A stretch of 49,082 nucleotides of DNA. Origin: Alphaproteobacteria bacterium. Lineage in GTDB: Bacteria; Pseudomonadota; Alphaproteobacteria; Rickettsiales; Rickettsiaceae. This document shows positions 14,247-19,831 of this stretch, in pieces; the first letter of the stretch is position 1; every line of letters starts with the position of its first letter. Where the stretch lies: the NCBI GenBank assembly GCA_030430995.1, contig JAUIKA010000001.1:1-49082 (forward strand), in the 5' to 3' direction. The notes under the pieces were generated by a model. It was not told the origin of the DNA and ran no database searches. It saw only the letters and a list, made by a program, of their open reading frames with translations. The translations under genes were made by a program, and so were the position numbers.

Positions 14247-16088
14247 TCACTCTTGTTTTTTTATTGGATAATTATCATGGTAATTTTCACTCTCGCTGCC
14301 TTTTCCGGTTGTGCCAAATCTTTCATGCATCTGACCTTTCTTACGCAACTGATGAGCACTTGGCCTATTCATCTGTGATGGCTTATTGCCATGAATAGCT
14401 TTTCCATCTTTATTTCCTGAGGGAAGATGTTTTTGTAATCTCTTCTGAGAATAATCAGGATTTTCTTTTGGAAATTTTCTCTTCTTATATTTTATAGCAC
14501 CTCTCTCATCTTCCTTGGCTTTATGGGTAAATTCAGGAAAAGCTTCACTAAAATCTATCTTAGTAAAATCTATCTTCATTAGCTCTTCTATAGTAAGACC
14601 GCCACAATCTGGATTTTTAGGATCTCCCCAACCTTTACCTAATTGCTTCCTACCCTCTACCTGTATTATCTTATGCAGCACTTCAGGAAAGCAGCAAAAT
14701 TTCTTATGTGAGCCTGACTTTATTCCGATCCTTCTTTTTATTACTTTCCCTACATAGTAACAACGCTTTCTCTCTCTTTGGCTAGCCAAATGCTCCTCAT
14801 CTTTTGTGCAGCTATTTCCTACCAGCTTGCCCCATCCTCCTTTGAGTTTTATATTTTCTTTTCTGCAGTCTTTTGACATCCCTTTAATTTGGCAGCAATT
14901 CTTAAATCCCAGAGCTCCCATTCTGCAAGTCTGCACTGTGCCAGGAAACAGCCTAACATTCTCTAAATCTTTTCCTTGAGTATGTTGAGCTATTTTAAGT
15001 TTACTTACTGAATCTGGCATATCTTTATCTTTATCCCAATGCGGATTATGGCAAATCCCCTCCATGCACGGAAAAACACTACATTTAATCGCTCCAGGGA
15101 TAGATAAATCATCATTGGTTGAGATATATTTAGGACGCATAACTTTATATGTATCCTCCCCAGTTTTACATGAATATTCACGCAAAACATTCACGCAGTT
15201 GCCCTCACCATCATATAAAATACATTCCCTGTCTTGAATAAAAAGGCAGTCTTGCCTATATTCAAATCTTCCGCAATCATCTTTAGATGGATAATCACAA
15301 GTTTTGGTATATCCATATTGCCAGCAATCTCTTGTTACCCTCACGCCCTCTATAATCCTTTCTTGTCTGCCTTGAGTGCATGTCTTTCTACTATCGAAGC
15401 AACGATAAACATTTTCCTTTGGCTCATAAGAAAACCTAGAACTTGCTGAATAATCTATCACTAGCTCATACCCTCCAAAATATCCAGCAGCTACTAAAAT
15501 ATCTATTCTTATTTTATTATTCTCCATCAAAGGCTTTAGATTTACCCCCAAAGAAGCACTGCCGATTCTCCCTGTTTGAACAGGGATCATCTCACCATTT
15601 TTCTCAATCGCTCTATAATAATCAAATGGCTCATCTGTCATTACCTCATCACATCTCTCTTGCCCCCATTTAAAATCCTCACTTCCTACAGATGTAAAAA
15701 TTACTCTATCGCTAGCCTTAATAATTGCATGATCCTTATATTTTATCGATCTGAGATTTATGCTACCGACACCATCTACAATCTCTATTGTCACTGAATT
15801 TTTGAACTCCCTGCCCTCTCTTGCATATAAAAAGTTGCAGCTGCTACCAGTTCCCGATCCATCGTCTCTTTCTTCGCACCTGCCGATGATAATCCTTTTA
15901 TTCTCTTTATCATGAGCAATTTTGATATCACTAGAAGCAGAGATCTTTACATAGTCCTGTTTTACCTTCTCCCTGAACCTAGTATTTCCTTGCTCTTTAA
16001 TTGGACGTGAATCATACGCCCCTCCCTTGGCAAAGCTTTGAGAAATCAGCGTCATAGATAATAAGATCAACACTACTCTACCAATCAT
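14247..16088 (-). CDS. traN: F-type TraN (Cys-rich outer-membrane mating-pair stabilisation protein)
   Basis: Signal peptide MIGRVVLILLSMTLISQSFA and a Cys-rich core (..CFDSRKTCTQG..DCWQYGYTKTCDYPSKDDC..DCLFIQDRECI..GNCV..YSC..). The ATG at 16088 is preferred over the GTG at 16094 because of the AGAGGGTGAG SD. Confidence 0.85.
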   Translation of the reverse strand: MIGRVVLILLSMTLISQSFAKGGAYDSRPIKEQGNTRFREKVKQDYVKISASSDIKIAHDKENKRIIIGRCEERDDGSGTGSSCNFLYAREGREFKNSVTIEIVDGVGSINLRSIKYKDHAIIKASDRVIFTSVGSEDFKWGQERCDEVMTDEPFDYYRAIEKNGEMIPVQTGRIGSASLGVNLKPLMENNKIRIDILVAAGYFGGYELVIDYSASSRFSYEPKENVYRCFDSRKTCTQGRQERIIEGVRVTRDCWQYGYTKTCDYPSKDDCGRFEYRQDCLFIQDRECILYDGEGNCVNVLREYSCKTGEDTYKVMRPKYISTNDDLSIPGAIKCSVFPCMEGICHNPHWDKDKDMPDSVSKLKIAQHTQGKDLENVRLFPGTVQTCRMGALGFKNCCQIKGMSKDCRKENIKLKGGWGKLVGNSCTKDEEHLASQRERKRCYYVGKVIKRRIGIKSGSHKKFCCFPEVLHKIIQVEGRKQLGKGWGDPKNPDCGGLTIEELMKIDFTKIDFSEAFPEFTHKAKEDERGAIKYKKRKFPKENPDYSQKRLQKHLPSGNKDGKAIHGNKPSQMNRPSAHQLRKKGQMHERFGTTGKGSESENYHDNYPIKKQE

Positions 16089-17496
16089 GCTCACCCTCTT
16101 TTGCCCACTCTATCTCCTCATCTGGCCTTTGGCTGCCTCCAGATGTTCTCTCTGTAATGTCTCCTGTTTTTTTTAAAGTAGTCCTCTCGTTCCAAACTGG
16201 ATCTGACCACTGCAAACAAATCCTCTCAAATGATTTAATCCCAGCTGATAAATATGCCCCATCAATAGATATACTTCTGATAACTATACTATTTCTACCT
16301 AGTTTTAAATATGGTCTTATATCTATCTTAGCAATTTTATTATAACTCCTAGGCTGCCTATACCCCTCATCTCTTCCATGATATGTAGTATCTTCACCTA
16401 CAAGATATGTACGGCTTCCAGTACTGACCCTAGGTAATACCTCATGTTCGCGGCGACGAACTATTACACCAAAACTTACTTTTACAAAATATTTATACTC
16501 AGACTCGCTGTTTAAATCAGTTAAACTCGAACCTCCATAAGGCCCTACAAAAACATTCTGACCATTAACTGAAACACTGACAAACTGCTTATACTCCAGA
16601 TCATAAATACTGAACTCTGCAAAAACCCTAGGATCTTTCTTGACATCAAGCTCCAAAGTTATATCTTTTGTATATTTTGTATGAGTTCTAAAAAATTCAT
16701 TCCCAAACCAACCTCTTCTATTGGTGGATTCCCTTTTATTATAATTCCCTGATTTATCATCTATGGTAAATGTAAATATACCGTTATTAAGCTTATGAGG
16801 TATATTGCTACTGAGTAATCTGACATCTTCCCGCGTACTACTAAATCTTCTGCAATGGATCTCTAAATCTTCAAATGCATCATAAGTATTGAATAATTTT
16901 TCACAAAAAAACGTCTCGGGAATAGGCTCTTTCACTTCTTTTTCCTCCCATCCCATTACAAATGGGTCATCCCTTAAATGGCTTTTCCCTTCAAAGGTTA
17001 CGCAGTCAAAATCTATCCCCTCATTCTTTAGCTTATCAAGCTCAGCCATAATACCTTTTTGGTATATTTTAGTAGCCTCTTCTAGCGCTTTATCTACTTC
17101 TCTTAGATTATTAGCTACTGCTGGATTATTCTCATCTGTCGAATCCTGCATTACCCTTAGAGCCTGAGCTGCATCACTTTTGCCTGATGCTATTTTTCTT
17201 CCCTGATCAGCCATAACGCTCTCGTCCTCAGGAGGGGAAAAATTTTCGGCATCAGCTTTGGTAATTTTTTGAGCCTCTTTACCTTCTCCTTCCTGCCTGT
17301 ATAACTCTATATCAGGATTATCTACCGGAGCATTTACTTCACCGTTTTTCTCTTGAACAGATAATGGCTTCTGCCAATTCTCAAGACCGTCTGCCTTCTG
17401 ACTGTGATCCCAGATGCGTTTAAACTCCTCCTTGTCATAGCCAGCGAAAACAAAACTGCTACATATTAATCCCAAAATACAGATAATCTTAGCCAA
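16078..17496 (-). CDS. Hypothetical secreted protein (non-canonical member of the tra operon)
   Basis: The track ORF (482 aa) starts at a TTG at 17526. A TTG at 17496, preceded by GGGAGG, gives the clean signal peptide MAKIICILGLICSSFVFAG. I recognise no family. It overlaps the upstream gene stop and the traN start. Confidence 0.55.
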   Translation of the reverse strand: MAKIICILGLICSSFVFAGYDKEEFKRIWDHSQKADGLENWQKPLSVQEKNGEVNAPVDNPDIELYRQEGEGKEAQKITKADAENFSPPEDESVMADQGRKIASGKSDAAQALRVMQDSTDENNPAVANNLREVDKALEEATKIYQKGIMAELDKLKNEGIDFDCVTFEGKSHLRDDPFVMGWEEKEVKEPIPETFFCEKLFNTYDAFEDLEIHCRRFSSTREDVRLLSSNIPHKLNNGIFTFTIDDKSGNYNKRESTNRRGWFGNEFFRTHTKYTKDITLELDVKKDPRVFAEFSIYDLEYKQFVSVSVNGQNVFVGPYGGSSLTDLNSESEYKYFVKVSFGVIVRRREHEVLPRVSTGSRTYLVGEDTTYHGRDEGYRQPRSYNKIAKIDIRPYLKLGRNSIVIRSISIDGAYLSAGIKSFERICLQWSDPVWNERTTLKKTGDITERTSGGSQRPDEEIEWAKEGEHDW

Positions 17497-19260: not shown

Positions 19261-19273
19261 AAATTACCTCTTT

Positions 19274-19831
19274 TTATATTTTAAAAATTAAAATTATTCC
19301 TATACGCAATACGTACATAATTGGAAAAAACAGGGTGACTAAGTCTATTTTTTCCTTTATCTTCTCAGATAAATTTGGGATCAAGCTAATCAAGAAATTT
19401 AATGAAAATGTGACTATAATAGATGCATGCATCACATATGGAAAAGAATCACTTCCTAGATTTAGCCATCTTATAAAAACAACAATAAAAATGTCGTACA
19501 TTATTATCAATAAAGAAATAATAGCAATTTTCTTTACCCATTTCTTTATAGCGCTATAACTATAAATGCCTCCTATCTGCTGAAATTTCTGGAAATAAGA
19601 AATCACTAATTTAATAGCCCTGTAAATTGTTATAGCTACTAAATTTATAGCAAAAACTTTTCCCAAAGCCATAAAGGTTATATAGCCTATTAAAACATGG
19701 TAAGCAAAAAAAACTCCTCCTCCCCATGTTGCTAAAAACGCTCCTATAATGGCTAACTTGAATGATTTAATACATATCCTAGAGATTTTCTCCTCATTGT
19801 TATAAAAAAACTCTCTTACCTTATTTCCCAT
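19274..19831 (-). CDS. Hypothetical 4-5 TM membrane protein (paralogue A)
   Basis: The start is placed at the ATG at 19831 (MGNKVREFFYNNEEKISR...) because GGAGG lies 5 nt upstream. The track ORF begins 27 nt earlier. Confidence 0.6.
   Translation of the reverse strand: MGNKVREFFYNNEEKISRICIKSFKLAIIGAFLATWGGGVFFAYHVLIGYITFMALGKVFAINLVAITIYRAIKLVISYFQKFQQIGGIYSYSAIKKWVKKIAIISLLIIMYDIFIVVFIRWLNLGSDSFPYVMHASIIVTFSLNFLISLIPNLSEKIKEKIDLVTLFFPIMYVLRIGIILIFKI

Follow-up and report, generated by a model that had tools for sequence, protein, structure and literature searches.

A three-gene module with a predicted permuted papain-fold enzyme between trbC and a conserved secreted-protein gene in an F-type transfer operon of a Rickettsiaceae contig

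Contig JAUIKA010000001.1 (assembly GCA_030430995.1), a complete 49,082-bp metagenomic contig from a member of the Rickettsiaceae with a GC content of ~34%, was analysed over its whole length and is referred to here as the window. Its minus strand encodes an F-type type IV secretion system (T4SS), and the preliminary description of this DNA had treated four genes between trbC and traN as one non-canonical insertion. Our results indicate instead that the interval most likely holds two different things: a conserved gene, here called X, and a three-gene insert encoding two membrane proteins (TM1 and TM2) and a 387-aa protein. X, the gene for a 472-aa protein, is a regular part of this lineage's operon, which leaves three genes as the true addition. 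The N-terminus of the 387-aa protein is predicted to be a Cys-His hydrolase domain of the circularly permuted papain/NlpC-P60 type, near the LRAT/H-NC and PPPDE groups. We favor the reading that this protein is an envelope-targeting effector, exported with the aid of the T4SS, and that TM1 and TM2 are its immunity-like partners, and we assign this reading a probability of roughly 45%.

The four genes are co-oriented and tightly packed on the minus strand, as originally described. The upstream boundary is trbC (19821..20633; PF09673 TrbC_Ftype, E 6e-12), whose stop overlaps the TM1 start by 11 nt. TM1 (185 aa, 19274..19831) begins at an ATG at 19831 behind GGAGG, the mechanically called open reading frame (ORF) extending to 19858, and TM2 (199 aa, 18661..19260) begins at an ATG at 19260 preceded by AGAGG. 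The gene for the 387-aa protein (17489..18652), which combines an N-terminal papain-type domain with a unique C-terminal half, starts at an ATG at 18652. X (16078..17496) starts at a TTG at 17496 behind GGGAGG (mechanical ORF to 17526), directly followed by the signal peptide MAKIICILGLICSSFVFA, in agreement with the protein of about 470 aa with a signal peptide that had been read from this DNA. The downstream boundary is traN (14247..16094; PF06986, E 2.8e-45), which overlaps the X stop by 17 nt. The junctions from trbC through TM1, TM2, the 387-aa gene and X to traN measure -11, +13, +8, -8 and -17 nt, and an AGAGG/GGAGG box, of Shine-Dalgarno (SD) type, stands ahead of every start of the four genes. 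No terminator-like sites were found between genes of the interval and promoter-like matches within it are at chance level. Co-expression with the T4SS fits these tight junctions and the lack of internal terminators.

None of the four proteins matches Pfam or NCBIfam (E ≤ 0.1) or PDB sequences. In the PDB sequence searches two single proteins and the A2 profile, built from 36 trimmed domains, were without match, and the A4 profile gave only two chance-level matches (E 2.7). Likewise, none of the four proteins matched any model of a Tra/Trb accessory family (TraS, TraT, TrbE, TrbA, TraQ, TrbB, TrbI and others) at E ≤ 0.1, which bears out the earlier impression that these proteins fall outside the known accessory families; TraS-type proteins are too variable for such a model test to exclude functional analogy.

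The evidence that separates X from the insert comes from related loci, which carry the designations L001 to L034. The one clear homologue of X, P0003, has 34% identity at 92% coverage (E 5.6e-66). At its locus, L003, whose TraU is visibly close to that of the window, the gene order is TraC-end, thioredoxin (Trx)-like gene, TraW, TraU, TrbC and P0003, such that the X homologue directly follows TrbC with no membrane or enzyme genes between them. In the Rickettsia plasmid pREIP and the Megaira plasmid pPCS148, the trbC-traN slot is filled by a ~340-aa "hypothetical protein" with a signal peptide; the two are homologous (E 4e-43), and the pREIP protein has a weak match to X (pairwise E 6e-8). X members of 395 and 351 aa are present in the metagenomic tra loci L007 and L034. 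Thus the trbC-X-traN slot is occupied in five other loci (L003, L007, L034, pREIP and pPCS148). A five-sequence alignment of the X family contains invariant C165, C198, C215, C427, W430, W435 and E437, the last four of which lie in a C-terminal motif, CxxWxxxxWxE, that may also be written CxxW...W.E..L. The order TraW, TraU, TrbC, TraN, TraF, TraH of the F plasmid is kept in the window, but traN directly follows trbC in F, whereas X lies between them in the window, in Rickettsia, in Megaira and in the related metagenomic loci.

We rejected an origin of X as the detached N-terminal half of TraN, as hhalign of the X family against the F and window TraN proteins gave a probability of 0.3%. The TraN proteins of Rickettsia and Megaira (L001 8962-10038; L002 8935-9987) are only ~350 aa long and keep their own signal peptides; they match residues ~205-585 of the 615-aa TraN of the window, and the N-terminal ~200 residues are absent. 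The lack of a detectable relation to TraN, together with the signal peptides of these short TraN proteins, argues that X is a separate secreted protein, peculiar to this lineage of F-type systems. Overall, X appears from these comparisons to be a conserved, unnamed member of Rickettsiales-type F-T4SS operons and not part of the insert, which departs from the original treatment of the four genes as one unit. Where X is encoded and how many Cys it contains suggest that it may be a periplasmic or surface partner of TraN. Annotations of Rickettsiales amplified genetic elements (RAGEs) and of Rickettsia and Megaira plasmids list it as "hypothetical", and we flag it here as an unrecognised conserved component.

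The 387-aa protein found only itself in a k-mer-indexed search. An exhaustive HMMER search of 1.84 billion representatives (E ≤ 1e-3) returned 47 proteins, the query and 46 relatives, all of which align within residues 1-224 and mostly end at about residue 190-195. At 50% identity the family thus amounts to 46 clusters in addition to the window protein, and all of them seem to come from environmental samples or endosymbionts. The proteins that carry the domain are 243-1970 aa long, with the domain N-terminal or, less often, internal or C-terminal. Residues 1-197 (18062..18652) thus appear to define a domain family that has no curated Pfam or NCBIfam model.

Full-length alignment covered 43 proteins (the window protein and 42 relatives), while the A2 alignment of 36 trimmed domains was too diverse for pattern scanning. 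Cys114 is invariant in 43/43 full-length proteins and His30 is nearly so. In all 36 trimmed domains His30, Gly46 and Cys114 are invariant, Gly29 and Tyr107 are near-invariant, and a conserved C-terminal "EEVAxxYNV" segment is present. The codons of the two predicted catalytic residues, CAT for His30 (18563..18565) and TGT for Cys114 (18311..18313), were read from the sequence and fall in invariant columns. A lack of conservation of the putative catalytic His and Cys among homologues had been named as a ground for refutation, and since both residues are conserved this objection does not hold.

An AlphaFold2 (AF2) model of residues 1-197 that used the family alignment reached a pLDDT of 86.7 and a pTM of 0.77. 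In this model a strand of the N-terminal sheet (residues 30-36) holds His30 and a helix (residues 114-124) begins at Cys114, and the His-on-strand, Cys-at-helix-start arrangement so predicted is the layout of permuted papain/NlpC-P60 enzymes. The best Foldseek match in the PDB was Aichivirus A 2A (7zv6), with a probability of 0.94 but weak scores (E 0.024, TM-score 0.30 on the query and 0.46 on the target), and kobuvirus polyproteins were matched in BFVD (E 2.7e-3). Kobuvirus 2A proteins, which we take to be H-box/NC proteins of the LRAT-like permuted NlpC/P60 group, resemble the domain in placing a His on a strand followed by an [N/D]C motif at a helix start; identity is 10-11%, and the bacterial domain is ~200 aa with extra helices.

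Sequence signals toward the permuted papain groups are weak but consistent. The family shares with PPPDE/DeSI proteins (PF05903, Peptidase_C97) the His-then-Cys order and a Y-x(5,6)-[ND]-C-x2-F motif, and 8/43 relatives match the Pfam PPPDE model below threshold (E 2e-4 to 1e-2). The single PPPDE match examined scored 17.6 bits against a gathering threshold of 29.2 and covered ~57 residues around the Cys motif; the 387-aa protein itself does not match PF05903 at E ≤ 0.1. The TseH-like Pfam family PF25218 is matched by 1/43 relatives (E 3.4e-4) and not by the 387-aa protein. With hhalign, the DCxxF helix aligns with the catalytic Cys in human DESI1 (E 7e-4) and with the Cys motif in PLAAT3 (E 1.3e-4, probability 54%); both reference sequences are approximate, so these alignments serve as leads and not as tests. 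Taken together, the invariant His30 and Cys114, the AF2 layout, the kobuvirus 2A matches and the weak PPPDE matches support the permuted papain fold that had been proposed from the His-then-Cys order.

No signal peptide was found on the 387-aa protein or on its many relatives in which the domain comes first, and the 387-aa protein has no Pfam match to a lytic transglycosylase (SLT) domain. The C-terminal half, residues 198-387, has no relatives that we could find, and a single-sequence AF2 model of the full protein was of low confidence (pLDDT 35). Across the family the C-terminal regions are variable and low in complexity. The last ~60 residues of the 387-aa protein (17489-17670) are not alignable with the tails of P0004, P0007-P0009, P0016, P0038, P0046 and P0048; all these tails, that of the 387-aa protein included, share a Met/Gly/Gln/Asn/Phe-rich composition, acidic ends and motifs such as MMGLGG or QxMG. 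Such tails of shared composition could be a secretion signal. One relative, the 1886-aa P0034 (L009 1919-7579), carries the same N-terminal enzyme domain together with LysM and RTX (HemolysinCabind) repeats, which suggests a type I-secreted, glycan-binding version of the enzyme.

TM1 and TM2 have ~6 and ~5 hydrophobic segments, respectively, in a Kyte-Doolittle scan; these counts come from a simple hydropathy window and not from a dedicated transmembrane predictor. Each was without relatives, the other apart, in a k-mer-indexed search of 5.8 billion (5.8e9) proteins. BLASTP aligned the two at E 2e-5, the value for a single pairwise comparison, with 28% identity over the full alignment. They have the NEEKISR motif in common, and a 64-nt DNA repeat of 72% identity spans the 5' ends of both genes. 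Thus TM1 and TM2 are, to judge from these similarities, diverged tandem paralogues, as the preliminary description had it.

Loci that encode the enzyme family were screened with the window's own Tra proteins, with Pfam and by reading ORFs. Matches in named genomes were to metagenome-assembled genomes (MAGs) of Rickettsiales and to the Rickettsia endosymbiont of Bradysia coprophila, and the nearest relatives of the 387-aa protein sit inside tra clusters. The enzyme gene occurs within F-type tra clusters at four different positions. The window represents the TrbC/X position (TrbC, TM1, TM2, enzyme, X, TraN). The TraW/TraU position is used in L013/L014 (TraW, TM193, ankyrin (Ank)-containing enzyme, TM151, Phd/PIN, TraU) and in L033/L034 (TraW, small TM genes, TM226, enzyme, TraU, TrbC, X, TraN). 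Between TraG and TraD lie the enzyme genes of L007/L008 (TraG, SLT, PLD, 265-aa gene, enzyme, ATPase, TraD), of L016, L030 and L032 (PLD, Sel1, enzyme, TraD) and of L015 (SLT, further genes, Sel1, enzyme). Finally, in L017, from the Rickettsia endosymbiont, the enzyme gene is upstream of TraE (enzyme, TraE, TraK). About half of the loci (L009-L012, L019-L029 and L031) have no tra genes within the available DNA and many of the contigs are short; the fraction of the family linked to T4SS genes is limited by the extent of the contigs and is thus a lower bound.

These clusters contain further genes beside the enzyme. A PLD-like (Nuc-type) nuclease is a conserved neighbor of the module in the order PLD, partner, enzyme, TraD (L007 8533-9138; L016 3502-4122; L030; L032); the window also encodes a PLD-like nuclease (46481-47032, plus strand), 27 kb from the enzyme module on the other strand. 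Other cargo of the TraW-TraU gap includes a Phd/PIN toxin-antitoxin pair in L013 (4026-4687) and a 330-aa protein of unknown family in L034 (11078-12070), and a 149-151-aa polytopic protein is common to L013 and L034 (E 4e-30).

For the gene just upstream of the enzyme, 16 loci were checked systematically and six more were read; with the near-identical pairs L007/L008, L013/L014 and L033/L034 collapsed, this gave 20 distinct loci besides the window. The directly upstream gene encodes a membrane-anchored product in 19 of these 20. The exception, L017, retains a 95-aa remnant of one of the partner families. The upstream partners fall into three unrelated kinds. The first is a bitopic family of 260-350 aa with conserved LC..TC, ERPCDYI and terminal ERKDI motifs (L007, L018, L022-24, L027, L028, L031 and L012), to which the L017 remnant also belongs. 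Members of this "ERPCDYI" family stand directly upstream of the permuted papain-fold gene at L007 9135-9932, L018 7154-7936 and L022 2675-3724; those of L007 (precomputed Pfam) and L018 (direct scan) have no Pfam match, and no homologue of the family was found in the window. The second kind consists of bitopic Sel1-repeat proteins with an N-terminal anchor (L015, L016, L030 and L032). The third is polytopic, of ~190-226 aa, and comprises TM1 and TM2 of the window together with the partners in L013, L034 and L005, where a partial ORF adjoins the top-scoring relative of the window protein. Homology among the polytopic partners of different loci was considered and rejected, as they have no detectable mutual similarity. 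Hypervariability of this sort is usual for immunity and exclusion proteins. Since a membrane gene precedes the enzyme also in loci without tra genes, the linkage is to the enzyme and not to the T4SS. Thus, as in effector-immunity pairs, a conserved adjacent partner is found that varies in type and is located at the envelope.

A described system offers a precedent for such a pair. Tox-Act1 of the Salmonella type VI secretion system (T6SS) is a permuted NlpC/P60 phospholipase effector that is toxic only in the periplasm, requires His43 and Cys151, cleaves phosphatidylglycerol and phosphatidylethanolamine, and is neutralised by the two-helix membrane protein Imm-Act1 (PMC12994826). The same work argues that permuted NlpC/P60 clades target lipids generally and shows phospholipase activity for TseH (PMC12994826), and the lipid targets of the characterised clades speak against a role of the 387-aa protein in cutting peptidoglycan. 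The likeness between the 387-aa protein and Tox-Act1 is drawn from the published description and not from sequence: both have a papain-like core of the permuted NlpC/P60 kind with the His before the Cys and no signal peptide of their own, and both are encoded in or beside a secretion-system cluster next to a gene for a multi-helix membrane protein. In contrast to Imm-Act1, which has two helices, the partner here is duplicated with 5-6 hydrophobic segments, and the machine is an F-type T4SS and not a T6SS. TseH/TsiH of the Vibrio cholerae T6SS is likewise built on a permuted NlpC/P60 conflict effector and also belongs to a different secretion system. The bacteria-killing T4SS of the Xanthomonadales, a P-type (VirB/D4) machine, exports effectors (X-Tfe) that lack signal peptides and are recruited by the coupling protein through an XVIPCD domain; no domain of this type was seen in the 387-aa protein. 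The cognate immunity proteins (X-Tfi) face the envelope as periplasmic lipoproteins, and their genes are upstream of and co-transcribed with those of the effectors.

The preliminary description had left two readings open, and comparative context favors the second of these, in which an effector is encoded in the transfer operon with membrane immunity or partner proteins. What leads us to this choice is the combination of a conserved domain without a signal peptide, a variable C-terminus, a fast-evolving envelope partner that is adjacent in nearly every case and repeated linkage to a secretion machine, for which Tox-Act1 serves as an example. This four-element pattern resembles contact-dependent effector-immunity modules. 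If it is one, TM1, TM2 and the 387-aa gene would be a cargo module spliced into the operon and co-expressed with the T4SS. The lack of a signal peptide implies that the enzyme is made in the cytoplasm. We infer that its export would then depend on the T4SS, possibly by way of the variable C-terminal half and the TraD coupling protein. Hints that the protein is a T4SS substrate are circumstantial: the enzyme genes are found within tra operons, traD follows them directly in L016, L030 and L032, and the C-terminal tails are variable and of low complexity. Once exported, the enzyme might cleave an acyl or amide bond in the cell envelope of its target, a phospholipid being a likelier substrate than peptidoglycan. 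The duplicated, polytopic TM1 and TM2 would neutralise the enzyme or sequester it at the membrane, and so shield the producing cell or its kin.

Several points weigh against this proposal. Delivery of antibacterial effectors is not known from F-type T4SSs, and the hosts probably live as obligate intracellular bacteria, for which contact with other bacteria may be rare. The 387-aa protein is without any Pfam match and the structural matches are weak (Foldseek E 0.02, TM-score 0.46 on the target). The partner gene is upstream here and not downstream of its toxin as for Imm-Act1. Linkage to the T4SS is not universal, given that about half of the loci lack tra genes. In addition, C-terminal ankyrin repeats, present in 3/43 relatives, are more typical of host-directed effectors.

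The main rival is that the 387-aa protein acts on the eukaryotic host, whether by removing ubiquitin or SUMO in the manner of PPPDE/DeSI proteins or by attacking host membranes as a PLAAT-like phospholipase. The gene would be cargo like that of RAGEs, which are known to carry effectors with Ank or tetratricopeptide (TPR) repeats and other cargo (PMC10732058), and the membrane proteins would be unrelated cargo or membrane anchors. The occurrence of the family in Rickettsiales MAGs and a Rickettsia endosymbiont, the intracellular lifestyle, the Ank repeats and the variable, low-complexity C-terminal regions all fit such a role. The weak PPPDE matches in 8/43 proteins fit as well, but this similarity is confined to ~57 residues around the Cys and remains below the Pfam threshold. 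PPPDE proteins are eukaryotic or viral isopeptidases and, unlike the family described here, come without membrane-partner genes. A literature search on PPPDE in Rickettsia found nothing relevant. A membrane-anchored gene upstream of the enzyme in 19/20 distinct loci, of three unrelated kinds, is not expected of a host-directed effector, and the LysM of one relative is a glycan- or peptidoglycan-binding module. The near-constant membrane partner is therefore left unexplained, and we regard a host-directed role as unlikely, though a serious contender.

Exclusion proteins of the TraS type are encoded in tra operons; they are small, hypervariable and polytopic, and reside in the inner membrane. 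The insert could thus hold two unrelated things, in which case TM1 and TM2 would act in entry exclusion as TraS does and the 387-aa gene would be independent cargo, and the orphan status and duplication of TM1 and TM2 are in keeping with this. The window, however, already encodes a separate polytopic 191-aa protein just downstream of traG, and a membrane-anchored gene precedes the enzyme in unrelated loci, some of them without tra genes. We therefore consider such a split improbable.

It is quite improbable that the insert is decaying or neutral cargo with no present function. The tra operons of this lineage do tolerate insertions: pREIP carries a PDDEXK nuclease, Megaira has group II introns and L013 the Phd/PIN pair. 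Yet all three ORFs of the insert are intact, their starts have SD boxes and their junctions are tight, the predicted catalytic residues are retained, and the GC content at third codon positions (GC3) of the three inserted genes matches that of the adjoining genes, with no sign of recent foreign origin. No repeats that would mark transposition were found around the insert.

Least probable of all is the first of the two original readings, a cell-wall amidase or endopeptidase that opens the peptidoglycan for conjugation in place of a missing lytic transglycosylase: peptidoglycan hydrolases do exist within the NlpC/P60 superfamily, Gram-positive T4SSs use CHAP/NlpC-type hydrolases, one relative bears LysM and, as the preliminary description had noted, no SLT is detectable in the 49-kb window by Pfam scans and tblastn, but the contig is unclosed and an SLT may lie outside it, an intact SLT gene is present in the same cluster in L007/L008 and L015, the closest operon, L003, lacks such an enzyme gene between TrbC and X, and neither the 387-aa protein nor many domain-first relatives carry a signal peptide.

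Beyond the interval, the window looks like a plasmid from its gene content, which includes ParA, a resolvase, a PIN toxin, an HTH_36 Rep-like protein, HSP20 and Rpn/PDDEXK transposases; closure into a circle was not found. On the minus strand the F-type T4SS genes run TraE, a gene in the TraK position, TraB, TraC, a 227-aa gene, TraW, TraU, TrbC, the four genes of the interval, TraN, TraF, TraH, TraG, a transposase, TraD and TraX. Among annotated plasmids the nearest TraN proteins, at 34-38% identity, are those of Rickettsia and Candidatus Megaira. No plasmid was matched when the tra region was searched by megablast, and a first genome scan with TraN gave nothing either.

The 227-aa gene (22166-22849, minus strand) occupies the gap between TraC and TraW, which is the TrbI position in F; its product has one N-terminal transmembrane segment and a very long helical tail rich in Lys, Glu and Arg, and the equivalent slot in L003 holds the 107-aa thioredoxin-like protein. 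The 191-aa ORF (8588-9163, plus strand) lies on the opposite strand just 3' of traG, approximately where F-like plasmids carry the entry-exclusion gene TraS; its product has several hydrophobic segments and no Pfam match. A 1912-aa relaxase (36095-41833, minus strand) joins MobA/MobL to a RecD-like helicase, to pieces of the NTPase and finger domains of DNA polymerase III alpha and to Toprim, a domain fusion that is unusual; a DNA_pol3_finger fragment likewise lies beside the tra genes in L017. Between the tra operon and the replication/partition region (29396-33996, minus strand) are genes for an 839-aa protein whose first half contains a sodium:solute symporter domain, for a GNAT acetyltransferase and for an HTH_36 protein of 536 aa, and these genes are metabolic or transport cargo of the plasmid.

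The superfamily of permuted NlpC/P60 enzymes and the logic of effector-immunity modules are already known. What is new is the domain family, its three partner families, the recurrent residence of the domain family in F-type operons of Rickettsiales-like bacteria and X as a conserved operon member. The findings extend circularly permuted papain-fold enzymes into the mobile elements of Rickettsiales. A further-reaching idea, which we consider doubtful, is that Rickettsia-like intracellular bacteria also use their F-type conjugative T4SS for delivery, bringing a permuted NlpC/P60 envelope-attacking enzyme into recipients or competitors, with hypervariable upstream membrane proteins acting as immunity. 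The injected enzyme might then kill recipients or competitors, or breach the envelope for DNA entry. If true, this would be an F-type counterpart of the bacteria-killing T4SS of Xanthomonas, in which the toxin domain forms a new family and the immunity proteins belong to no fewer than three unrelated ones. Together, the results raise the question of whether the conjugation systems of obligate intracellular bacteria, whose activity is itself debated, may also export protein effectors.

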